Assembly (NCBI GenBank): GCA_964604195.1
Contig: CAZRXW010000001.1
Location: 2,358 to 66,357 of the forward strand
Direction: 5' to 3'
Source of the DNA: an uncultured Bdellovibrionales bacterium
Lineage (GTDB): Bacteria > Patescibacteriota > Minisyncoccia > Moranbacterales > UBA1568
Length of the DNA: 64,000 nt
Positions 1-59,304 of this stretch are shown in pieces (position 1 is the first letter of the stretch; every line of letters starts with the position of its first letter). The position numbers were made by a program, and so were the translations under genes. The notes beneath the pieces are model-generated. The model was not told the DNA's origin and did no database searches. It saw only the letters and a list, made by a program, of their open reading frames with translations.

Positions 1-1553
1 CTCATATTCCCAAAGGAGGTATTGTGGTCCGGGATGCCAAGAAAAATGAAGCGCTCACGCTTTTGGATGATACAGTGCTTTCTCTCTCCAAGGACGACAT
101 TGTCATCGCTGATAGTCGCCGCGCCTTGGCTCTTGCAGGAGTCATGGGGGGCAAACACTCGGGTATAAGCAGCGATTCAAAGTCTGTGGTGTTTGAGCTC
201 GCTCATTTTGATGCCAAGAGTATTCGGCGTACCGAAAAGCGCTATCGGATGCAGACGGATGCGGCCTATCGTTTTGAGCGCGGCATTGATCTTGGCCGAC
301 CGGGTGAGGTGATGGCTCTTTTAGCGGAGAAGGCTGCTCTCTGGGGTCTTGGTCATGATTTCTTTTACCGAGAGGTGGGGGTTAAGCTTCCTAAGCCAAA
401 ATCTATTACGCTCGAACTCGAAGCGGTGGCGAGTCTTTTGGGGGCTAAAGTACCACTTTTTGAAATCGTACAGTATTGTTCCTGGCTTGGTCTTTCGGTC
501 AAAAAACTTCCCAATCGCCAAGCGCTTCAGGTTACTCCACCACTGCGTCGACCAGATCTGAGCACCCCAGAAGATATTATTGAAGAAATTGGGCGAACAC
601 GCGGGTATAGCGCTATAGAGCCGCTCCCTCTTGCTCTTCCAGCGGTACCATTGGTCCGAGACGGGGATAAAGCATTTGAACGTACACTGAAACATACCCT
701 CGCTCATCTTGGTTTTGATGAAGTCATGACCTATTCCTTTTATAGCGAGAAGTCAGCTCTCGCGTCGGGATATGCTCCGACCGAACATTTGAAATTGGCC
801 AACCCCATGAATCCTGATCAGGCTCTCATGAGGAGAAGTCTTTTCCCGGGGCTTCTTCGAGCGGCACTCAACAATACTGCCCACTCAACCCGCTTCTCGC
901 TCTTTGAATTTGGCAGTGTTTATTTTCCCACTAAGGAAAAGCCCGATGAAGAGAAAAAAGTAGCACTCCTCTGTTTCGATCGTGAAAGCACTTCTGTTGA
1001 GGCAAGTTTTCTTGATTTCAAAGGACGGGTAGAAGCACTTTTTGGTCAGCTCAAGGTCCCGGTAAAGTTTTTGCCAGTATTGGTAGCGGTGCCGCGCTAT
1101 CTCGAGTCAGGGGGAGCCGCCAATCTTACTGTGCAGGGTGAAATTTTTGGAACGATTGGTATTGTAAAAGATGTTGCTATCCAGAAGTTTGGCAAGCGTG
1201 CTGTATTATTCTTTGTCGAATTTTCGGTCAAGACGGCCGCTGCTTTCCAAGAACAAGAGCGAGTCTTCCAAAGGATTGCTCGTTTTCCTATGGCAGAGAG
1301 GGATATTTCTCTCATTGGTCCAAAAGAGGTAACGTACGATAGGCTGCTTCAGGTTATTGAGTCAGCTGGCGCACCACTCCTGAGGAAGGTAGAACTGTTT
1401 GATGTCTATCCCACTGAAGAAGAAAAGAGCTTTTCTCTTCATCTTGGTTTTCAGTCTGATGAACGGACGCTCTCCGGCGAGGAGATGGATCGCTCTTTTG
1501 ACGCGATAGTAGCAGCAGCTGGGGAACATCTCAATATGAGATTAAAGCTTTAA
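1..1553 (+). CDS. pheT: phenylalanine--tRNA ligase beta subunit, C-terminal ~515 aa (5' end lies upstream of window)
   Basis: Reading frame is open from nt 3 to the stop at 1551-1553; the track ORF starts at an internal GTG (24). Translation shows PheT B3/B4 and C-terminal FDX-ACB-like regions (e.g. ...VFELAHFDAKSIRRT..., ...GVMGG...). Confidence 0.8.
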   Translation, partial: HIPKGGIVVRDAKKNEALTLLDDTVLSLSKDDIVIADSRRALALAGVMGGKHSGISSDSKSVVFELAHFDAKSIRRTEKRYRMQTDAAYRFERGIDLGRPGEVMALLAEKAALWGLGHDFFYREVGVKLPKPKSITLELEAVASLLGAKVPLFEIVQYCSWLGLSVKKLPNRQALQVTPPLRRPDLSTPEDIIEEIGRTRGYSAIEPLPLALPAVPLVRDGDKAFERTLKHTLAHLGFDEVMTYSFYSEKSALASGYAPTEHLKLANPMNPDQALMRRSLFPGLLRAALNNTAHSTRFSLFEFGSVYFPTKEKPDEEKKVALLCFDRESTSVEASFLDFKGRVEALFGQLKVPVKFLPVLVAVPRYLESGGAANLTVQGEIFGTIGIVKDVAIQKFGKRAVLFFVEFSVKTAAAFQEQERVFQRIARFPMAERDISLIGPKEVTYDRLLQVIESAGAPLLRKVELFDVYPTEEEKSFSLHLGFQSDERTLSGEEMDRSFDAIVAAAGEHLNMRLKL

Positions 1554-1640: not shown

Positions 1641-2340
1641 TTACAAAACAGGTTGGACTACTGCGCTACGGTGTGGAAAGTCCGGACATCGACCCTCTCA
1701 TTTTTGGAGAGGGAAGGGTAGTGGGTAACGCCCACACGTCGTGAGACGCGAGGTGCGAGCAGAGACGCTCATGGAATGAGAATTTCAGAGCCCTTGTCTT
1801 TGACAAGGTGAGTCCTCGTAGTGATATGAGGGGTGAAACGGCTAAATCCTTACTTCGATGCAAGGTCGTGTCCCGCACCTTTTCAGGTTGATAAAGATAA
1901 TTTTGGTATATACCAGATGACCGTCTTTTTAGAGAGATGGTTGTTGGTTTACGAGTCTGAAAAGGTGCGGGAAGAACCGCAAAGATTTCTCTAGTAATAG
2001 AGAAGCAAGAGAAATAGTAGTCACCCCGCACCTTTTAGTCTTGAGAGAGTTTTATGTACTATATGTACTGAGGAGCAGGCAAAAAGATATTTTCTATATT
2101 GGCTGTACTGAAGATCTTAAGAAAAGAATTCTTCAGCACAACAATGGAGAGTCTCGAGCCACAAAGTCCGCTGCTCTTTGGGAGTTGATATATTACGAGG
2201 CTTATACTTCTTTAAGTTTAGCGAGACGTCGTGAGTTGAGGTTAAAACATCATGGAAAAGGTTTAGCTGAACTCAAAAAGAGAGTTATTGAAGACTAAAA
2301 GGTGCGGGGTACAGAATCCGGCTTATAGACCTGTTTTGTA
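1641..2340 (+). ncRNA. rnpB: RNase P RNA (bacterial type), ~700 nt with large ORF-containing insertion
   Basis: P4 5' strand GGAAAGTCCGGAC at 1675-1687. Universal GGGTAACGCC at 1723-1732. AGGGGTGAAACGG and CAAGG elements follow. P4 3' strand ACAGAATCCGGCTTA at 2311-2325. Terminal P1 pairing ACAAAACAGGT (1643-1653) with ACCTGTTTTGT (2329-2339). No protein-coding signal on + strand in 1560-2040. Confidence 0.75.
2041..2298 (+). CDS. GIY-YIG nuclease family protein (COG2827/YhbQ-like, 85 aa) encoded inside the RNase P RNA gene
   Basis: ATG 2041, TAA 2296-2298. N-terminal FYVLYVLRS...IFYIGCTEDLKKRILQHN matches the GIY-YIG motif pattern, followed by conserved R/E-rich helix (LARRRELRLK). Lies entirely in the loop of a 13-bp hairpin, CCCCGCACCTTTT 2024-2036 paired with AAAAGGTGCGGGG 2297-2309. 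Confidence 0.7.
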   Translation: MREFYVLYVLRSRQKDIFYIGCTEDLKKRILQHNNGESRATKSAALWELIYYEAYTSLSLARRRELRLKHHGKGLAELKKRVIED

Positions 2341-2372
2341 AAAGTGCTTTCAATTATTAGTTATTCAAGCTT

Positions 2373-17591: not shown

Positions 17592-18023
17592 ATGACGCAA
17601 CAGCCGAAATTTGTACCGAAACCTGGACAGGTAGACTTTACGGATATACGCTATTGTCCGGTGATGAACTGTGTTGTGCAGCACAGGCGAAAAATTCTGG
17701 TGGTACAGCGGAGTGCAGCGTTGCGACTCTATCCAGAGTATTGGAATGGGATTAGTGGTTTTCTTGATGATAAGCGAAGCTTTAAGGAAAAAGTGTGTGA
17801 TGAACTAAGGGAAGAATTAGGAATAAAAAAGAACAATATCCTTTCTATTGAAATGGGAAATATTTTTCATCAGGAATCGCCAAAATATAAAAAAACATGG
17901 ATTGTGCATCCGGTACTGGTCGAAGTGGATACCGACAAAGTAAAACTCAACTGGGAAGCTCAAGATTTCCAATGGCTCTCGGCCCAGAGAAGCAATGAGG
18001 CTCAAACTTCTGCCAGGTTTTGA
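17592..18023 (+). CDS. NUDIX hydrolase
   Basis: NUDIX box variant (E.VCDELREELGI) in a ~140-aa protein. Confidence 0.7.
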   Translation: MTQQPKFVPKPGQVDFTDIRYCPVMNCVVQHRRKILVVQRSAALRLYPEYWNGISGFLDDKRSFKEKVCDELREELGIKKNNILSIEMGNIFHQESPKYKKTWIVHPVLVEVDTDKVKLNWEAQDFQWLSAQRSNEAQTSARF

Positions 18024-18924
18024 TCAGGTGTTGGGCTCATTTTTCAAAAGGTAACTGTTATGAAAAAAAAGTATTGATTCTTGGAGCGAGAGGGATGCTG
18101 GGACAAGAACTGGTCCGGGTATTTGGTATGGATGAACAGTATGAAATCATAGCTTGGGATAGAGTAGAGATGGACGTGACGGATTTTCAGGCTTTGACAG
18201 CGGGGATTGAACGCTTGAATCCAGCTATTATTCTAAATGCAGTGGCTTACAATGCGGTAGACCTTTGTGAGACGAGCGATGAGGAATTCGCTAAGGCAAA
18301 GCTTCTCAATACCCGTGTACCAGAAAAATTGTCTCAAATAAGCCAAAAAATAGGGAGCATTTTGGTGCATTACTCCACAGGCTATGTCTTTGATGGGAAA
18401 TCCGAGTCGGGGTATGATGAGAAAGTGCCCACGGAGCCACTCTCCCACTACGGGGCAACCAAACTCGGGGGGAAGAAAAAGTACTCGAGAGTGGGGCGAA
18501 GACCTATGTTATTCGGCTCTCGAAGCTTTTTGGGAAACCAGGGAGTTCTGCAGTAGGCAAGCGGAGTTTCTTTGATGTCATGCTTGAGAAAGGCAGGACT
18601 TCTGTTTCAGTGAAGGTAGTGGATGATGAGAAAAGTTGTTTTACCTACGTACCCGACTTGGCCGAAGCAACAAAATCTTTGATTGAAGATAAGGCACTCT
18701 ATAGTATCTATCATCTGCTTAATGAAAATGCGGTGACGTGGTGTGAGGCAGTACAGGAGCTTTATCGGTTGGCAAATGTAACGACGAAAGTGATTCCGGT
18801 GACGAGTGCCGAATTTCCGCGACCGGCGAGGAGACCACATGCTTCGGTTTTACAAAATACCAAACGACCAAAAATGCGACACTATCAGGAAGCATTGGCG
18901 GAATATCTGCATCAAGAATTATGA
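18020..18924 (+). pseudogene. rfbD: dTDP-4-dehydrorhamnose reductase, interrupted by frameshift(s)
   Basis: Frame A (18020-18556) encodes the RmlD N-terminus through ...HYGATKLGG. The continuation (VLESGAKTYVIRLSKLFGKPGSS...MLEKG...VKVVDDE...) is in the +1 frame (up to 18924) after a G6/A5 homopolymer at 18466-18480. The likely native start ATG 18060 (MKKKVLILGARGMLG) is also out of frame because of an A8 run. Confidence 0.65.
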
Positions 18925-50560: not shown

Positions 50561-50613
50561 GATGCACTAGAGAGAGTTTTTGCTTGCAGGAGCGCTCAAA
50601 AACCGATAGAGTG

Positions 50614-52128
50614 ATGACATATATATTTGGATCTATGCGTGAAGATATTCTTGAAACGAAACGTGAAAAGCTGACCAAACTGATAGAGGCTCGTGGCACG
50701 GCGTATCCTGAAAAGGCTGAACGTACTCATGAAGTGAGTCAGCTGCTGGATCAGTTTGATGCCCTCAATGGCACTGAAGAAAAAGTATCCATAGTTGGGC
50801 GAGTACGATCACTTCGAGTAATGGGCAAGATCGCTTTTGCTCATATTGAAGATGGGACGGGCAAGATGCAGGGATTTTTTTCTGAAGAAATGCTCGCACC
50901 TGTTGAGATGCCGAGTGATAAAAGTTCTTTTGCGCTTTTTAAAGAAACAGTTGAAATTGGAGATTTTCTTTCTATTACCGGAACAGTTTTTGAAACGAAT
51001 CAAAAGGAAAAAAGTATTCGGGTAGAGACATGGCAGATGCTTTCCAAATCTCTCTTGCCACTTCCGGCTGAATTTTATGGACTCAAGGACGAAGAGCAGC
51101 TTCTTCGGAGGCGCTATCTTGATCTCGTCATGAATTCCGAAACTCGTGAACTGTTCCGAAAGAAAAATAAATTTTGGCAGACGGTGCGGCAGTATCTCTC
51201 AAAGGAAGACTTTCTTGAAGTGCAAACCCCGGTTCTCGAACATATCCCCGGTGGAGCTGAGGCTGAACCATTTGTGACGCATCACAATGCTCTCAATCAG
51301 GATTTCTATCTACGTATTTCGCTGGAGCTTCCGCTGAAGAGGTTACTGGTTGGCGGATATGAACGGGTGTTTGAAATTGGTCGGGTATTCCGCAATGAGG
51401 GTATCGATCGAGAGCATCTTCAGGAGTTTGATCACATGGAGTTTTATTGCGCCTATACTGATTTTGAAACTGGCTGTGCCATGGTTGAAGATCTCTATCG
51501 AGAGGTCGTACGTTCAGTGGCAGGCGAGGCGCTGGTAACTACTTTTGAGGGAGAAACAATCAATTGGAGCAAGCCCTTTCCTCGAGTTGATTATTTTACC
51601 GAGTTCAAGCTCGAAACGGGTATTGATCTTTCCGGTGAAGTAACCGTCGAAATGCTCCGAGCTAAAGCTGATAAGCTTCATATCAAGTACGAACTGAATG
51701 CTGGGAAGGGACGACTTATTGATACGATTTATAAGAAAACAGTACGACAGAAACTTATCCAACCCTGCATTCTTGTGGGTCATCCGGTGGAGGTGTCGCC
51801 CCTGGCCAAGCTTGATCCTAAGAATTCTCGTCGGACGCTTCGGATGCAGCCGATTGCCGGGAAGAGCGAACTGGGGAACGGATTTGCCGAACTTAATGAT
51901 CCGATTGACCAGCGAGCTCGGTTTGAGGCACAGATGAAACTTCGTGAAGCAGGCGATCATGAGGCACAGATGATTGATGAAGATTTTCTGGAGGCACTTG
52001 AATATGGTATGCCACCTGCTTTTGGTTTTGGCATGAGTGAGCGACTCTTTGCGATTCTTATGGATCGTTCTATCCGTGAGACAGTCATTTTCCCGCCGAT
52101 GAAGAGCTTGTCAGGGGAGGGAAAGTAG
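50614..52128 (+). CDS. lysS: lysine--tRNA ligase (class II)
   Basis: OB anticodon-binding domain. Motif 2 FRNEGIDREHLQEFDHMEFY. Motif 3 region GFGMSERL. ATG 50614. Confidence 0.9.
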   Translation: MTYIFGSMREDILETKREKLTKLIEARGTAYPEKAERTHEVSQLLDQFDALNGTEEKVSIVGRVRSLRVMGKIAFAHIEDGTGKMQGFFSEEMLAPVEMPSDKSSFALFKETVEIGDFLSITGTVFETNQKEKSIRVETWQMLSKSLLPLPAEFYGLKDEEQLLRRRYLDLVMNSETRELFRKKNKFWQTVRQYLSKEDFLEVQTPVLEHIPGGAEAEPFVTHHNALNQDFYLRISLELPLKRLLVGGYERVFEIGRVFRNEGIDREHLQEFDHMEFYCAYTDFETGCAMVEDLYREVVRSVAGEALVTTFEGETINWSKPFPRVDYFTEFKLETGIDLSGEVTVEMLRAKADKLHIKYELNAGKGRLIDTIYKKTVRQKLIQPCILVGHPVEVSPLAKLDPKNSRRTLRMQPIAGKSELGNGFAELNDPIDQRARFEAQMKLREAGDHEAQMIDEDFLEALEYGMPPAFGFGMSERLFAILMDRSIRETVIFPPMKSLSGEGK

Positions 52129-52145
52129 GATACAACGGGAAAGTA

Positions 52146-52219
52146 GGTCGCATAGTTCAGTTGGTTAGAACGTTCGATTCACATTCGAAAGGTCCCTGGT
52201 TCGAGTCCAGGTGCGACCA
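52146..52219 (+). tRNA. tRNA-Val (anticodon CAC), CCA not encoded
   Basis: Cloverleaf: acceptor GGTCGCA/TGCGACC; D arm GTTC-AGTTGGTTA-GAAC; anticodon arm TTCGA-TTCACAT-TCGAA; T arm CCTGG-TTCGAGT-CCAGG; discriminator A. Confidence 0.8.
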
Positions 52220-52279
52220 CAACAGTCTAACGGGGCAGGCATTGCAGGGGTCGGTGGTTCCCTGCCCGCCTCTGGAGGG

Positions 52280-52297
52280 GAGTCCAGGTGCGACCAC
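52280..52297 (+). repeat. 18-nt direct repeat of the tRNA-Val 3' end (GAGTCCAGGTGCGACCAC), att-like remnant
   Basis: Exact copy of 52203-52220 located 60 nt downstream of the tRNA, preceded by a degenerate T-arm-like hairpin. Confidence 0.6.
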
Positions 52298-52395
52298 TAG
52301 ATTTTTAGAGTAAGTACTGAGAAGTGGTACCCCTTGCTGTTTGGGCGTGTGGCCCACTTATTGTTTTTACAACCAATTTTTCAGTATTATTTTTT

Positions 52396-54714
52396 ATGAA
52401 GGAGCAGATACTTCCTCCATCTTCCTCTCCAGAGAGTGTTTCCAAAAAACAAGAGCTCACCACGAGTCGAGAAGAGCTCATGGCTGATAAGTTAGGACAT
52501 TATCAGGCGCTGAAGACATCAGTACAGGAGATATTTGGGACTGTAGAGATTCCTGAAAGTATTCGGGATAAAGTGCTTGGGCTTCGCCAGGAGATCAAAC
52601 AGGCGATTTCGGAATCAGAGTATCTGGATACGTTTGACGCTCGTATTGAAAAAGAAATTGCTGGACTTACGGAGGTGATATTGGCCTATCAAGTCCCTCA
52701 AGGGAATATTATGGGTTTGGATGAGCGTGCAGTGCAGAAAGAAGCTTTGATTGATTCTCTGCGACTGTATCTTGATTCCTATCGTCTTGCACATAATGCT
52801 GCTCACTTTCGAAAGAATGTGGCAGATCTTCAAGATGATATCCTCAAGGAGCATCAGGCGAGAAGTTTAAACTTTTATGCAGAGGATGAGAAACAATCCG
52901 TGTTAGCTGACCGTGTATTCAAAAAGTACGAAACTGCTGGATTTACCAAGGAGGAAATTGCTGAACTCGTGGCGACGTGCCATCTTGAGCGATTGGATGC
53001 ATTAGAAATTCAAGATCTAAAAATTATTGAGAAAATTGGCAGCATTTTTTCTCGTTTCATGGGTGGTGACAAGACCCGCTATGTTGGTCTCTCGGCGGCT
53101 CTGATGGTGCCGGCTGTGATTGAGGGTTATGCTCCCTCTGTTCTCGCAGATGCTTTTCGAGAGAATAGTATTGATTTGACGCAGGTAGGCTTGTTTGCCC
53201 TCCTGACTTCGGTGGCGGCTGGTGGATCAGCCTTTCTTCAAAAGCGATTCAAAGAATTTCTTGATAAAAATTTTGCTAAAGAAGATGGTTTTGGCCAGTA
53301 CATCGCCGAAGGGGTAGCTGAATTTCCTGGGACGGAAATTGGTACTTTTGGTGCCGAGAAAATAAAGCGTCGGTTGGCAGAGTCCAAATCAAGTTATGAA
53401 CGTATATTACGAAAAATAAGTTTTGATATTGTTCCAGCCGCTGTGACCTTGGCCACGAGTGCTGCGGTTTTGTATCAGCGTAGCCCTGCACTCGCTGCTG
53501 GTACAGTGGTGGGGACAGGCATGATGATGGCCGTCGATCATTATGTTCATAAAAAAGGGAAATTTTGGGATAAGCGTCGGCGAGCCAAGGAAGAAGCGGA
53601 GCAGGTAAGTGAAAAAATGAGCGAGTTGCTCAATGCTCATATGGAGGTGATCCTCTCTGGAGAAAAAGATCGTTTTGCTGCGGATATGGAGGATCTTCTC
53701 GCAAAAGAACGCGTGGCGCTCTCTGATAAGACTTTTATGGACGTGGTTCGTGACAGGGTCGGGGAAATAACGCAAATGGTTAATTTTGTTATCGCTGCCA
53801 TGGCGGCCTATATTGCTGGTGGCACTTCCGATAAGTTTATCGCAGCACTGATGTATTCGGGCCGGTTTCATGAAGGGATAGCCATGATGCTGAGCGCCAA
53901 ACAGGATCTATTAGATTCACTTCGTGACATCGTCCAAATGGAGGTCATGTTTAATGGGTATGCTGCCGAGGAGAAAGAGAAAGATCGAGTGGGCATGAGT
54001 TCACTCGAGCATCAAGATATCCTCCTTTCAGGTGTTGGGGTAACCTTTGGCGAGAAACAGATTCTTGATTCTATCGATGTGACTATCCCCAGCGGCTCGT
54101 TTGTTTCTCTTGAGGGTATATCGGGATCGGGAAAAACAACACTACTGAAAGTATTGGCGGGGTATTATCGACCAACCGCGGGCGAAGTGACTCTTGGTGG
54201 ACAAAACATGGAAAATCTGAAAAAGAGTGGTCCAGACTCTGTTTATAGTAAAATAGCGTATCTTTCGCAATTTCCTTACATAGTGGAGGGTGATGTTCGA
54301 TCAAATCTCACTTTTGGAATTCAGGGTGACGTGAGTGATGATGAGATTCAGGAGGTGTTACAACAGGTGGGGTTAAGCGCTCGATTTTCCAATCTGAGAG
54401 AAAAACTTGTTGGAGGACGAGGTGATATGGGAACTGCTTCTGGCGGTGAAACTTCTCGTATTGGACTAGCAAGGACCCTACTCAAGATGCGAAAAAATGG
54501 AGCCAAGATTGTATTTTTGGATGAACCAACCGCTTCAGTTGATGAAAAAACAGCTACGGAAATAGCCAAGATTCTTAATGAGGAGAAAAAAAGAGACCAC
54601 GGAGTAACCTTTATTGTTATTAGTCACGATAAACATTTTCGTGAACAACTTGAGACGACGCAGATAGTCCAGCTTGGACATGGAAAACTTATGGAGGATA
54701 GTCCTGCGGCCTAA
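52396..54714 (+). CDS. fused ABC exporter (6-TM permease + C-terminal ATPase) with ~230-aa N-terminal cytoplasmic extension
   Basis: C-terminal Walker A GISGSGKTT, signature ASGGETSRIGLARTLL, Walker B IVFLDEPTASVD. Six predicted TM helices between residues ~240-560. Likely start ATG 52396 (track 52324). Confidence 0.65.
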   Translation: MKEQILPPSSSPESVSKKQELTTSREELMADKLGHYQALKTSVQEIFGTVEIPESIRDKVLGLRQEIKQAISESEYLDTFDARIEKEIAGLTEVILAYQVPQGNIMGLDERAVQKEALIDSLRLYLDSYRLAHNAAHFRKNVADLQDDILKEHQARSLNFYAEDEKQSVLADRVFKKYETAGFTKEEIAELVATCHLERLDALEIQDLKIIEKIGSIFSRFMGGDKTRYVGLSAALMVPAVIEGYAPSVLADAFRENSIDLTQVGLFALLTSVAAGGSAFLQKRFKEFLDKNFAKEDGFGQYIAEGVAEFPGTEIGTFGAEKIKRRLAESKSSYERILRKISFDIVPAAVTLATSAAVLYQRSPALAAGTVVGTGMMMAVDHYVHKKGKFWDKRRRAKEEAEQVSEKMSELLNAHMEVILSGEKDRFAADMEDLLAKERVALSDKTFMDVVRDRVGEITQMVNFVIAAMAAYIAGGTSDKFIAALMYSGRFHEGIAMMLSAKQDLLDSLRDIVQMEVMFNGYAAEEKEKDRVGMSSLEHQDILLSGVGVTFGEKQILDSIDVTIPSGSFVSLEGISGSGKTTLLKVLAGYYRPTAGEVTLGGQNMENLKKSGPDSVYSKIAYLSQFPYIVEGDVRSNLTFGIQGDVSDDEIQEVLQQVGLSARFSNLREKLVGGRGDMGTASGGETSRIGLARTLLKMRKNGAKIVFLDEPTASVDEKTATEIAKILNEEKKRDHGVTFIVISHDKHFREQLETTQIVQLGHGKLMEDSPAA

Positions 54715-54745
54715 ATTTTGTGTATAGGCAGAAATACATGGGAGT

Positions 54746-55090
54746 ATGAAAATCGTCTTTTTGGCTGGGCCGTACCGCGGCCGTGGCGAACCCGGGGAAA
54801 TCGAGCGCAATATCGCGCAGTCGGCCAAATTTCAGGCGGCACTGGCGCATGCGGAAATGGTCGCGTATAGTCCCAATATTCATGATGCTCATTGGGAGAC
54901 CCTCAATGGCGGGAGTGAAGCGGCTGCCAAAACATTGCGTGCTTTTACCGAATGGGTGTTTGCAGAATGTGTGACAGCATTGGCGGTTATGCCTGGTTGG
55001 GAGACCTCGACTGGCACCCAAAAAGAAATTGCGTCTGCTCGAGAGCGAGGTATCCCGATTTTTTTTTCCTCCAGAATCCAGATGATCTGA
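54746..55090 (+). CDS. DUF4406 family protein (nucleoside 2-deoxyribosyltransferase-like fold); GC-rich
   Basis: MKIVFLAGPYRG ... MPGWETSTGTQKEIASARERGIPIFF matches DUF4406 pattern (MKIYLSGPM...LPGWE.S.GA..E...A...G.PV) common in (actino)phages. High GC/GC3. Confidence 0.6.
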   Translation: MKIVFLAGPYRGRGEPGEIERNIAQSAKFQAALAHAEMVAYSPNIHDAHWETLNGGSEAAAKTLRAFTEWVFAECVTALAVMPGWETSTGTQKEIASARERGIPIFFSSRIQMI

Positions 55091-56579: not shown

Positions 56580-57902
56580 ATGCTTGATATCCAATATATC
56601 CGTGACCACGTTGATGAGGTGAAACAGGCCGTTAAAAATAAGCGGCTGACTCTGGATGTAGATACACTCTTGGCAGCTGATCAAGATCGACGCAAGCTTC
56701 TTCAAGAAATTGAGGAACTCCAATCACTCAAAAATGATATCAATGACCTTATTCATGGCGCCAAGACGCCTGAAGAGCGAACTGAAGTAATTGCCAAGGG
56801 CAAAGAAATCAAAGCCAAGCTTGATGAACGCGAGCCGCTTCTTTTGGCCGCTAAAGCCAAATTTGAGGGACTCATGGTCCAGGTGCCGACAGTGCCATCA
56901 TCTGATACACCAGTGGGGGCGAGTGATGCTGATAATGTTGAGATAGGGAAATATGGCGAGCTGCCGCAGTTTGCTTTCTCTCCCAAGACTCATATCGAAC
57001 TCGGAAAAGATTTGGATATTCTTGATTTGGAGCGAGGAGCTAAGGTATCGGGGTATCGGGGTTATTACGTGAAGAATGAAGGAGTACTCCTCATCATGGG
57101 GGTCATGCTTTATGCGGTGCAGAAATTGGTATCCAAAGGATATCTCCCGATGATTCCACCGACTCTCGTGAAAGGTTTTCCACTTTTTGGTTCAGGGTAT
57201 TTCAAGGGACTTTCTTATGATAGTTCTATTGATGAAATTTATGAGGTAGCTACTCATGACAAAGAAAGTGATGGCAGTGTGAGTAAGGAAGAAAAATTTC
57301 TCGTAGGGACAGCTGAACCATCACTCCTCGCATACTACAGCGGTGAAGTATTGGATGGTGCGAAACTTCCTCTGCGATTGGCTGGCTACAGTCAATGCTA
57401 TCGGAGTGAAATCGGTAGTTATGGCAAAGATACCAAGGGCATGTATCGGGTGCATGAATTTATGAAGGTAGAGCAGGTAATTTTGGCCCCTGCTGATCGA
57501 GAGCTTGCCACACGGCTTCAGGATGAGATGATAGCTATTTCCGAGGAAATGCATCGAGAACTCGGCCTTCCGTATCGCAAAATCCAAATTTGTACCGGCG
57601 ATATGAGTGCTGGGAAATACCGAGCCTTTGATCTCGAAGCCTGGATGCCAGGTATGAACCGCTATGGTGAGACGGGGTCGGCCAGTAACTTTCTTGATTG
57701 GCAATCACGCCGCCTCAATGTGAAATATACTGATCCCGAGACGGGCGAGAAGAAATACGTTTATATGCTCAATAATACTGCTCTCCCGAGCCCACGCATT
57801 TTCATTGCGTTGCTCGAAAACTATCAGCAGGCTGATGGGAGTATTCTGGTACCCGAGGTACTGCGGCCTTTTGTTGGAAAGGAGAGAATTGAGAAAAAAT
57901 AA
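56580..57902 (+). CDS. serS: serine--tRNA ligase
   Basis: N-terminal coiled-coil tRNA-binding arm. Class II motifs (…FRSE-like YRSEIGSYGKDTKGMYRVHEF; motif 3 GSASNF…). Confidence 0.9.
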   Translation: MLDIQYIRDHVDEVKQAVKNKRLTLDVDTLLAADQDRRKLLQEIEELQSLKNDINDLIHGAKTPEERTEVIAKGKEIKAKLDEREPLLLAAKAKFEGLMVQVPTVPSSDTPVGASDADNVEIGKYGELPQFAFSPKTHIELGKDLDILDLERGAKVSGYRGYYVKNEGVLLIMGVMLYAVQKLVSKGYLPMIPPTLVKGFPLFGSGYFKGLSYDSSIDEIYEVATHDKESDGSVSKEEKFLVGTAEPSLLAYYSGEVLDGAKLPLRLAGYSQCYRSEIGSYGKDTKGMYRVHEFMKVEQVILAPADRELATRLQDEMIAISEEMHRELGLPYRKIQICTGDMSAGKYRAFDLEAWMPGMNRYGETGSASNFLDWQSRRLNVKYTDPETGEKKYVYMLNNTALPSPRIFIALLENYQQADGSILVPEVLRPFVGKERIEKK

Positions 57903-57973: not shown

Positions 57974-58049
57974 GGGTGCGTAGCTCAGTCGGTAGAGCAG
58001 TGGCCTTTTAAGCCAACGGTCGAGGGTTCGATTCCCCCCGCACCCACCA
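57974..58049 (+). tRNA. tRNA-Lys (anticodon TTT), CCA encoded
   Basis: Acceptor GGGTGCG/CGCACCC; D arm GCTC-AGTCGGTA-GAGC; anticodon loop CTTTTAA; T loop TTCGATT; 3' ACCA. Confidence 0.8.
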
Positions 58050-58069
58050 TACTTATTTTTTGAAATGAG

Positions 58070-58130
58070 CTTTTAAGCCAACGGTCGAGGGTTTCCGTCC
58101 GAAGGAGGACGCTTCCCCCCCGCACCCACC
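58070..58130 (+). other. partial duplicate of tRNA-Lys 3' half with 22-nt hairpin insertion (tRNA fragment / att-like remnant)
   Basis: CTTTTAAGCCAACGGTCGAGGGTT (identical to 58005-58028) + TCCGTCCGAAGGAGGACGCTTC + CCCCCCCGCACCCACC (identical to the tRNA 3' end); no 5' half present. Confidence 0.5.
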
Positions 58131-58170
58131 CTTATCTCCTCATGGTATACTAGAGGAAAGTCAAAAATGT

Positions 58171-59304
58171 ATGCGTATACTTTCTTTAGGTGGCCTCTTG
58201 TTTTCGTTTGTAGTTTTATCTGGTTGTTCACTTACTCCACCTCAAATTGGTGGTGGGGGAAATAATAACGATGGTACCCGTAACCCTTTTCAGGCCAAGG
58301 CTATCCCGGGATCAATTTGGCGTTCTACCGATGGTGGAAAAACGTTCGAACCAAAAGTGACTGTTGATGAGAAACGTAAAATTACTTCAGCCCAGGTACT
58401 GGATATCTCATTTCTGCTCCGAGATACTTCGGGGAATCTTGATGTGAAGCGTGCGCCAAGTGTATTTGTGGGAACAGTAGATAATGGGATCTTTAAATCC
58501 AACGATAGTGGAGAAGGATGGGAACCTCGCGAATTTCCTCCCAAAAAAGTCTATCGTTTCACAGCTGACTCCACCAATCCTGATCGTATGTTTGCAACAG
58601 GTGTGGTTGCTAATTTTGGCAAGGTTTTTCGGACAAAAGATGGTGGTGAGACATGGCAAGATGTTTACACTGAGCCAGGCGCAGGGACAGTTATTGTTTC
58701 ACTAGCGCAGTCCCGCTGGGATTCAGAAACTATTTTTATTGGAACGAGTACGGGGACTATTGTGCGCAGTAGTGATGGTGGTGATACCTGGAAAAATGTT
58801 GGGAGTGGTATTGATGGTCCCATTACGGAGATAGTATTTGATGCCTCTGTGAGAACTCGCTTATATGCACTGGTCTTTGATAAGAAGATCTATCGCTCAG
58901 ATGATGGGGGATTGACATGGACTGATCCGCTTCTTGAAGTGAAGGATCCTATTCCGACAGCTACCAATGTGATTGGTCAGGTATCGCTCGTAGCGGACCC
59001 ATATCACTCGGGTCGTCTCTATGTAGGGACCAAAAAAGGTCTCTACCGGAGTACGGATACCGGTATACATTGGGAGAAGATGAATATTATTGAAAGTGCT
59101 GAGAAGTTTCCTATTAGGGCGATTGCCATTAATCCCAAGAATTCCAACGAAATCAGTTTTGTGTCTGGACATACTTTCTATAAGTCAACCAATAGTGGTG
59201 ATACATGGTCAGTAGTGCCACTGGATGTTGACAGGGAGGTGTCGGTACTCGCTTATGACCCTTTTGATCCGACGGTGCTTTATCTGGGACTCCGTAAATT
59301 CTAA
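58171..59304 (+). CDS. lipoprotein with BNR/Asp-box repeat beta-propeller (Ycf48/sialidase-like)
   Basis: Lipobox LSGC at signal peptide end. At least 6 S/T-x-D-G-G-x-T-W repeats (STDGGKTF, TKDGGETWQ, SSDGGDTWK, SDDGGLTWT, STDTGIHWE, STNSGDTWS). Confidence 0.65.
   Translation: MRILSLGGLLFSFVVLSGCSLTPPQIGGGGNNNDGTRNPFQAKAIPGSIWRSTDGGKTFEPKVTVDEKRKITSAQVLDISFLLRDTSGNLDVKRAPSVFVGTVDNGIFKSNDSGEGWEPREFPPKKVYRFTADSTNPDRMFATGVVANFGKVFRTKDGGETWQDVYTEPGAGTVIVSLAQSRWDSETIFIGTSTGTIVRSSDGGDTWKNVGSGIDGPITEIVFDASVRTRLYALVFDKKIYRSDDGGLTWTDPLLEVKDPIPTATNVIGQVSLVADPYHSGRLYVGTKKGLYRSTDTGIHWEKMNIIESAEKFPIRAIAINPKNSNEISFVSGHTFYKSTNSGDTWSVVPLDVDREVSVLAYDPFDPTVLYLGLRKF

Follow-up and report, generated by a model that had tools for sequence, protein, structure and literature searches.

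The tRNA-Lys gene and the fragment behind it

The window, by which we mean the whole stretch of 64,000 nucleotides analysed here, carries two intact tRNA genes, tRNA-Val(CAC) and tRNA-Lys(UUU), and each is followed by a 3′ half-copy with an insert at C56/G57 of the T-loop (Table 1; a slash marks a junction, and related loci and contigs carry L numbers). The flanking SerRS places the DNA in Candidatus Moranbacteria/Moraniibacteriota, within the CPR/Patescibacteria. The tRNA-Lys gene has the same sequence in related Moranbacteria (L001–L004, L200, L203, L210, L214, L215 and others). A first-pass annotation, made from the letters of the window, had described a fragment 20 nt past this gene that repeats it from the anticodon loop to the acceptor end, and the fragment is indeed there, as two exact blocks. 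Their lengths had been given as 24 and 16 nt; the first figure stands, while the second block measures 15 nt, the 16 having included the preceding T.

The first block comprises the anticodon loop, the 3′ strand of the anticodon stem, the variable loop, the 5′ strand of the T-stem and T54–T55. The fragment lacks positions 1–31 of the tRNA: the anticodon stem is without its 5′ strand, and all that lies upstream is missing too. The second block is followed by a C, where CCA would end in A. Between the blocks, the 22-nt insert that replaces the T-loop folds as the annotation had drawn it, with CGTCC (58096–58100) pairing to GGACG (58107–58111) around a 6-nt loop, GAAGGA, at −7.9 kcal/mol. Orthologues of the fragment read GGGTTC/CCGTCC..., which puts the insertion point after C56. 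By this comparison the core insertion would be about 16–18 nt long, with G57 and A58 lost or mutated.

Table 1. Features at the tRNA-Val and tRNA-Lys loci, with their positions in the window
Feature	Position	Strand	Basis or remark
Intact tRNA-Val(CAC), allele A	52146..52220	+	ARAGORN, Rfam
tRNA-Val relic	52221..52297	+	Composite; orthologues in L205 and L062
Right arm of inverted-repeat bracket, ACAGTCTAACGGGG	within 52221..52297	+	Part of the tRNA-Val relic
Decayed allele-D-like segment, ~positions 36–56	52240–52260	+	71% identical to tRNA
Hairpin insert, 19 nt, CCTGCCCGCCTCTGGAGGG, at C56/G57	52261–52279	+
Copy of tRNA-Val positions 58–75, 18 nt	52280–52297	+	Exact
Intact tRNA-Lys(UUU), encoded CCA	57974..58049	+	ARAGORN; Rfam RF00005, 69.4 bits
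AT-rich spacer, 20 nt, tacttattttttgaaatgag	58050..58069	+	Between tRNA-Lys and relic block 1
Relic block 1, tRNA positions 32–55	58070..58093	+	Exact, 24/24 against 58005–58028
GC-rich hairpin insert, 22 nt, TCCGTCCGAAGGAGGACGCTTC, at T-loop position	58094..58115	+	Folding, orthologues
Relic block 2, tRNA positions 61–75	58116..58130	+	Exact, 15/15 against 58034–58048
Putative extended −10, TGgTATACT, of BNR/Sortilin-like gene (58171–59304)	58143..58151	+	Conservation in relatives; inferred

The gene that comes next encodes a BNR/Sortilin-like protein. Its putative −10 lies about 15 nt past the end of the relic, and the motif is conserved as catgGTATACT, catgCTATACT or catgTTATAAT across the window, L211, L212, L213, L214 and L215. 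A consensus promoter scan detected no promoter.

States of the locus in related genomes

Relatives were located through the identity of the neighbouring BNR/Sortilin-like protein, and about 100 related loci were compared; a metagenome scan for closer relatives gave a best match of 76%. Two of these relatives, L212 (neighbour protein 87% identical) and L213 (73%), have an empty site, in which the intact tRNA directly joins cttatct..catgNTATAnT, the flank that in the window comes after the relic, and the putative −10 stands as far from the tRNA 3′ end as it does from the relic in the window. Since the empty-site relatives join an intact tRNA to the same downstream flank, the 3′ end of the relic is the ancestral tRNA end. 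Block 2 is that end in situ, with the conserved flank still attached, as an alignment (A1) shows. The spacer, in turn, probably derives from the ancestral 3′ flank as a diverged copy, and would be the end of a first duplication unit. This rests on the same alignment, where the stretch behind the intact tRNA (tacttattttttg...) looks like the ancestral flank, taken as cttatctttg..catg in L213; the similarity is short and T-rich.

A relic of the window type, with spacer and with the hairpin at the same place (GGGTTC/CCGTCCGAAGGAGGAT..), is found in L214, L215 and L216 (neighbour protein ~71% identical), and L009 has a partial one in which the start of the hairpin insert is present. Block 1 shows 2 substitutions in L214 and L215, and the insert reads CCCGTCCGAAGGAGGATAC in L214 and CCCGTTCGTCAGAAGGATGC in L215. 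The arms of the hairpin vary among three orthologues through transitions (CGTCC/GGACG, CGTCC/GGATA, CGTTC/GGATG), most of which keep G.U pairs, a weak hint of selection at the RNA level. When the relic of the window is set against that of L214, agreement is 37/39 positions in the tRNA-derived parts, about 14/18 in the spacer and about 60–65% in the downstream flank. The better conservation of the tRNA-derived parts could reflect constraint rather than junk, the numbers being small; conversion from the invariant tRNA next to it, or an exchange in recent times, would fit too.

The closest relative, L211 (BNR protein 99.2% identical), shares the right junction with the window (..CCCCCCGCACCCACCC/t.at.t.cctcatggtatactagagg) and has a different interior, made up of a terminator and a body of about 190 nt ('bodyA'). 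BodyA is recognisably an old tRNA-Lys copy expanded by several insertions. It was considered as a new non-coding RNA and rejected, as it has no Rfam match and what looks like covariation in its acceptor stem is accounted for by descent from different tRNA-Lys alleles. In L200, L203 and L210 (SerRS 85–90% identical), 5′ relics lie upstream of the gene and bodyA-like relics downstream. The interval is a recombination hotspot, because the empty sites of L212 and L213 and the differently filled site of L211 share one downstream junction. To that extent the annotation was largely right to see scars of tRNA-targeted recombination here; classical integrase-mediated integration and excision in particular finds no support, for reasons given below.

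The tRNA-Val companion

A partial 3′ duplication had also been claimed for tRNA-Val. The last 18 nt of that gene are repeated as described, and the fragment proves longer than had been noted, though it has lost its anticodon loop. The orthologous 56/57 site has no insert in L004 and L011, 19 nt in the window, L062 and L205, and 39 nt in L026, and these different states suggest independent gains at one site.

At the lysS–serS locus at least four tRNA-Val(CAC) alleles substitute for one another. The intact gene of the window is allele A, and the relic resembles allele D as far as C56 and allele A from G57 onwards; L205 (SerRS 90% identical) has allele D as its intact gene together with the orthologous relic. 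Because relic and intact gene are different alleles, simple duplication is not the whole story, and allele replacement is needed as well. Duplication was presumably accompanied by allelic exchange, through homologous recombination with DNA of related lineages. Variable gene islets lie downstream of tRNA-Val. The 4.3-kb block after the gene was searched for a distal att repeat, and none was found.

Relics and hairpins across the lineage

The annotation had allowed for a lineage-specific family of tRNA-derived repeats, and had held that its reading would fail if other tRNA loci lacked the pattern. Of 71 non-redundant tRNA loci on Moranbacteria-like contigs, 24 are accompanied within 450 nt by a collinear relic with 18 or more matched nt, where shuffled flanks give an expectation of 0.35, and the idea of a family is largely right. 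The 3′ relics lie downstream of the intact gene and the 5′ relics upstream; the latter are followed, in relatives, by leader-like sequence, which fits the prediction of tandem duplication. Relics are found at all stages of decay, and no locus examined lacks an intact copy. Breakpoints and inserts cluster in loops, at 13/14 and 17/18 (D-loop), at 23..32 and chiefly at 56/57.

The inserts within relics are GC-rich hairpins of 16–40 nt, and the same ones recur in different tRNAs. In tRNA-Lys 5′ relics (L004, L007, L026, L059 and others) the D-loop contains the 18-mer CCTCCAGAGGCGGGCAGG, whose exact reverse complement sits in the T-loop of the tRNA-Val relic of the window, i.e. in a different tRNA and in the other orientation. 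A perfect 20-nt palindrome, CCTGCCTGCCGGCAGGCAGG, occupies 56/57 in two relics, one of tRNA-Arg (L017) and one of tRNA-Lys (L025); its occurrences in IMG/VR contigs of 38–68% GC may be genuine. Within bodyA a 20-nt insertion is polymorphic, present in L004 and lacking in L002 and L211. We define this mini-hairpin family as CC[T/G]CC-NNN-GGCGG-[G/A]CAGG with its reverse complement, together with CCTGCCTGCCGGCAGGCAGG.

The tRNA-Val insert matches the family at 18/18 positions. The tRNA-Lys insert of the window (CCGTCCGAAGGAGGACG) has a CCNNCC-loop-GGAGG-AC layout in common with variants such as CCCGCCTTCGGAGGGAC of L004, and a search allowing 4 mismatches gave no match; it would belong to the family by position and architecture, with no significant sequence match. 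Its mode of insertion is that of the family, in an apical loop, at C56/G57 and without target duplication, reading GGGTTC/CCGT... in the window, L214, L215 and L009. The same site is used in tRNA-Arg (L017), tRNA-Lys (L025) and tRNA-Val (window, L062, L205, L026).

GC-rich hairpins that are not terminators are enriched 4.2-fold within 300 nt of tRNAs (p=1e-7). A general REP-like family in the genome was considered and rejected, as the 64 kb of the window contain just 2 further GC-rich hairpins whose stems reach 6 bp or more, both unrelated. The inserts resemble REP or MITE-like repeats in being small, GC-rich, imperfect and non-coding palindromes with clean presence/absence polymorphism; they differ in that there are one or two copies per 64 kb, confined to tRNA-derived loops, and no RAYT or transposase was found.

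How the fragment may have arisen

We think it probable that the fragment is without function, a relic left by rapid turnover of the tRNA flanks through recombination, to which a lineage-specific mini-hairpin was added by insertion. In the ancestral arrangement, which some relatives have kept, tRNA-Lys would have stood right beside the promoter region of the BNR-like gene downstream. Some 65 nt, reaching from C32 to about +19 past the tRNA end, would next have been duplicated in tandem, or an equivalent homologous piece brought in by recombination. The gene would have remained intact, composed of the original positions 1–31 and new positions 32–76, with the original 3′ half stranded downstream. 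Into the T-loop of this stranded copy, exactly at C56/G57, a GC-rich hairpin of 16–18 nt would have been inserted, as a lineage-specific mini-insertion of the kind that recurs in the apical D-, anticodon- and T-loops of Moranbacteria tRNA-derived sequence. The direct repeats would afterwards permit deletion, conversion and exchange with relatives, and for this reason close relatives may show an empty site, another relic or the same relic. What speaks against duplication is that the flank homology supporting it amounts to about 11 nt, is T-rich and is possibly convergent; because this similarity is so short and T-rich, the duplication step is inferred rather than demonstrated. No enzyme that could insert the hairpin was identified among the window ORFs or the listed ORF families near related tRNAs.

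The fragment might instead be a classical attachment-site scar. A tyrosine-integrase element with its own copy of positions 32–76 would have crossed over in the anticodon loop and later been almost wholly lost, leaving the intact tRNA as attL and the fragment as attR, 20 nt apart. The direct repeat does begin exactly at the anticodon loop (C32) and does reach the tRNA 3′ end, and many relatives have repeats that begin in the T-loop (56/57–76); integrases that target tRNA genes reportedly choose just these two loops (Williams, 2002). The distal flank is common to empty and filled sites (L212, L213), as tandem duplication predicts too, tandem modules in L015 each terminate in a repeat, and the gene islets past tRNA-Val are variable. 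However, the repeats stand merely 20 nt apart, with an integrase gene neither between nor beside them. Pfam searches over the 63 window ORFs returned no integrase, recombinase or transposase, and in the 119 ORF families lying no more than 3 kb from related tRNAs none of these is seen repeatedly (the best 25 of 137 families listed; single cases are possible). Moreover, the flank of the first copy is like the ancestral flank, 5′ relics with duplicated leaders exist too, and the hairpin is left unexplained.

tRNA gene fragments that arise from integration have been reviewed (van der Gulik et al., 2023; PMC9897764), and the likeness is real: a partial direct 3′ copy beside an intact gene, breakpoints in the anticodon loop and T-loop, an empty site in relatives, and a tRNA flank that is a hotspot for variable DNA. 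In contrast to such att repeats, the present ones enclose or adjoin no element or integrase, and the copy has an apparent flank homologue, which fits tandem duplication; upstream 5′ relics, a relic invaded by a hairpin, and the involvement of about 1/3 of the sampled tRNA loci set the case further apart. Taking these points together, we regard the attachment-site scar as unlikely, although it is the strongest of the rival readings.

A functional element kept by selection is more doubtful still. Such an element could help to process or terminate the transcript of tRNA-Lys, act as a decoy for a tRNA-targeting nuclease or recombinase, or belong to the promoter of the next gene, and three observations lean that way: the high identity retained where neighbouring proteins are only ~70% identical, the mostly G.U-compatible changes in the hairpin, and the fixed spacing between relic end and the putative −10 of the next gene. 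Yet the element is missing or replaced in its closest relatives (L211, 99%; L212, 87%; L200, L203 and L210), and other relics are found in all states of decay, that of tRNA-Val in the window without its anticodon loop. The fragment folds no better than shuffles (z=−0.93). A terminator role was rejected, a terminator-like site or T-run being absent both past the tRNA and past the hairpin. Most probably the fragment has no function of its own.

An interrupted but functional tRNA, in which the hairpins act as small introns or the fragment serves as one half of a split tRNA, strikes us as highly improbable. The tRNA genes of Thermoproteales archaea have multiple small introns, subject to 'intron transposition', with near-identical inserts of 15–30 nt at non-canonical positions that include the D-loop and T-loop 56/57. 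Identical short inserts at differing positions of different tRNAs are found here as well; on a phage contig (L104), ARAGORN accepts a tRNA whose long variable arm is made by the 20-nt palindrome, and Patescibacteria have unusual tRNA introns (PMC13011429). But the host here is a bacterium, positions 1–31 are missing, and the truncated copies are redundant with a complete canonical gene alongside, an intact copy being present at every locus examined. A bulge-helix-bulge intron was rejected by inspection: no such motif can be drawn, the junction of T-stem and insert being a roughly symmetric internal loop (TTC/GAGT-type) in an incomplete gene. Group I and II introns were likewise rejected, with an insert of 16–22 nt in the T-loop of a half-copy, no group I or II signal, and no Intron_gpI match in the window; a genuine group I match, for contrast, scores 86 bits in L111.

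Nor does the fragment have tRNA character of its own. The thought that it might score as a pseudogene fails: ARAGORN reports the two intact genes and no third tRNA in the window, and the Rfam tRNA model has no match at 58040–58180 even at E≤10. As a cryptic tRNA or another known RNA it was rejected, since no Rfam family is hit at the gathering score or at E≤10 and the fold is unexceptional.

That the feature is an assembly or chimera artefact, or a chance similarity, can be given practically no credence: several Logan contigs do end within tRNA-Lys, but the 268-nt interval from serS to the next gene is identical in an independent Logan assembly (L195, which covers it whole and is one of several independent Logan assemblies with the identical SerRS sequence), three further data sets from other samples contain orthologous relics (L214, L215, L216), and shuffles of the window give 0.00 expected matches for the 24-mer and, with up to 2 mismatches allowed, 0.13 for the 15-mer.

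Precedents and implications

The closest precedent lies in the rRNA genes of the same phylum, where short, ORF-less, non-intron insertions have been described at stem-loop tops (Tsurumaki et al., 2024; PMC11270868). These insertions are under 200 nt, sporadic in distribution and of several independent kinds per site, and the tRNA-Lys insert is comparable in being 16–22 nt long, placed at a stem-loop apex (C56/G57), and free of an ORF or Rfam match. Unlike the rRNA genes, the host here is tRNA-derived, truncated and apparently dead; also unlike them, the inserts at 16–40 nt form a recognisable sequence family that occurs in both orientations. Neither the account of tRNA introns in Patescibacteria (PMC13011429) nor that of tRNA gene fragments (PMC9897764) describes the combination of relic and hairpin, and a literature search for the 20-mer palindrome CCTGCCTGCCGGCAGGCAGG and for tRNA relics or hairpins in Patescibacteria returned nothing.

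It is conceivable, and we offer it as speculation, that the hairpins of 16–20 nt are ultra-small mobile insertions of an undescribed type, which in Patescibacteria would specifically target the single-stranded apical loops of tRNA genes, namely the D-loop, the anticodon region and the T-loop at C56/G57, and maybe those of other structured-RNA genes, in either orientation and without target duplication, and whose inactivation of tRNA genes would drive the turnover. If so, single-copy tRNA genes would be put out of action either by the hairpins themselves or by whichever nuclease or recombinase mobilises them, leading to constant duplication, replacement and exchange of tRNAs. The fragment in the window would be one fossil of an ongoing conflict centred on tRNAs, and the hairpins a new kind of element.

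Taken by itself, the fragment is a scar that leaves the biology of tRNA-Lys unchanged. Its interest lies in its setting, as CPR genomes are tiny and usually have one gene per tRNA, yet about 1/3 of the sampled tRNA loci bear half-copies. Together with the replacement of alleles at a fixed locus and with mini-hairpins placed precisely in loops, these half-copies point to an unrecognised instability, and to horizontal exchange, at essential RNA genes. These findings also carry the pattern of insertions, known from the rRNA genes of CPR bacteria, over to tRNA-derived sequence and RNase P RNA. For annotation, caution is advisable in the Patescibacteria/CPR, a phylum in which tRNA fragments and insert-bearing copies are frequent.

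tRNA-Val alleles and the adjoining islet

In relatives (regions near tRNA-Val in L004, L007, L011 and L003), a new tRNA-Val gene is nested in the D-loop or the anticodon loop of an older allele, that is, of an earlier sequence version of the gene. Covarying inverted repeats, e.g. CCCCGTTACAACT / AGTTGTAACGGGG, stand on both sides of the nested gene, and in L003 the same bracket that elsewhere holds a nested tRNA-Val contains non-tRNA cargo. The decayed tRNA-Val copy in the window (its relic) retains only the right arm of the bracket, ACAGTCTAACGGGG.

The sequence immediately 3' of this relic is a small variable islet at the tRNA flank, which encodes an ABC-ATPase/SMC-like protein (796 aa) and a DUF1937/nucleoside-deoxyribosyltransferase-like protein. 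Neither ORF is present at this position in the related loci L200, L205, L208 and L210, where a Rieske-like gene comes directly, while other relatives have NUDIX or DUF1937 genes after tRNA-Val. No distal repeat of the window islet was detectable.

Apparent synthetase replacement and mosaic ancestry

Lysyl-tRNA synthetase (LysRS) belongs to class II (PF00152) in the window and others, whereas some close relatives have a class I enzyme (PF01921; L203, 4740-6329; L210, 503-2092). Both classes occupy the same syntenic position (GreA, LysRS, tRNA-Val), and the LysRS class looks to have been swapped in place at this locus.

Ancestry around the tRNA-Lys locus is mosaic. The SerRS proteins of two related loci, L214 (204-1523) and L215 (781-2094), are just 51-55% identical to that of the window, whereas the adjacent BNR-like proteins are more similar, at 70-72%. 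The opposite pattern is seen in L200 (SerRS 90%, BNR 69%).

Many independent Logan assemblies (L196-L199, L205, L206, L208) have contigs that end within tRNA-Lys or its 5' relic, likely because the tRNA is identical among co-occurring Moranbacteria species while its flanks are unlike. Hotspots of this kind will break up metagenome assemblies systematically.

Interrupted and possibly interrupted genes

The RNase P RNA gene of the window is split by a small GIY-YIG ORF, which lies between the arms of an inverted repeat that match perfectly over 15 bp, CCCCGCACCTTTTAG / CTAAAAGGTGCGGGG; the gene contains another, similar inverted-repeat bracket (see table). Homologues of the ORF in contigs L070 and L111 are located between tRNAs and the relics of those tRNAs.

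A 138-nt 'tRNA' in contig L037 (372-509; Rfam 38.5 bits) has ~66 surplus nt in the region of the anticodon arm. It is flanked by promoter-like and terminator-like sequences of its own, and no intact copy lies close by. The surplus may represent a small insert, not of group I, in a tRNA that would need its removal for function.

The RmlD (dTDP-4-dehydrorhamnose reductase) homologue of the window consists of two adjacent ORFs and may be frameshifted, interrupted or pseudogenised.

Features of the window, with positions and supporting matches
Feature	Position	Strand	Match or content
RNase P RNA gene, whole	1645-2341	+	
RNase P RNA, two parts	1645-2070 + 2254-2341	+	Rfam RF00010 class A; 57 bits + 21 bits, each under gathering score
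Second inverted-repeat bracket	~1868-1972		~75 nt inside
GIY-YIG ORF	2041-2298		Pfam PF01541, 48.7 bits
RmlD homologue, whole	18020-18924		
RmlD part 1	18020-18556		profile positions 2-134
RmlD part 2	18580-18924		profile positions 163-284
LysRS, class II	50584-52128		PF00152
tRNA-Val relic	52221-52297		
Right arm of bracket	52222-52235		
Variable islet	52324-55090		
SerRS	56580-57902		

A palindrome in viral contigs

The 20-mer palindrome CCTGCCTGCCGGCAGGCAGG has exact matches in 35 stretches of IMG/VR viral contigs (L080-L114; GC 38-68%), often beside direct repeats of 5-14 nt. In one of these contigs (L104, 2239-2330) it forms the long variable arm of a tRNA-Met gene accepted by ARAGORN, and in another (L111, 500-900) it lies within a 5' fragment of tRNA-Lys, in the D-loop. 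The fragment in L111 is followed by a GIY-YIG ORF and then by a second tRNA-Lys copy, broken at the anticodon loop, with a group I intron (1182-1416; 86 bits) ~330 nt further downstream.
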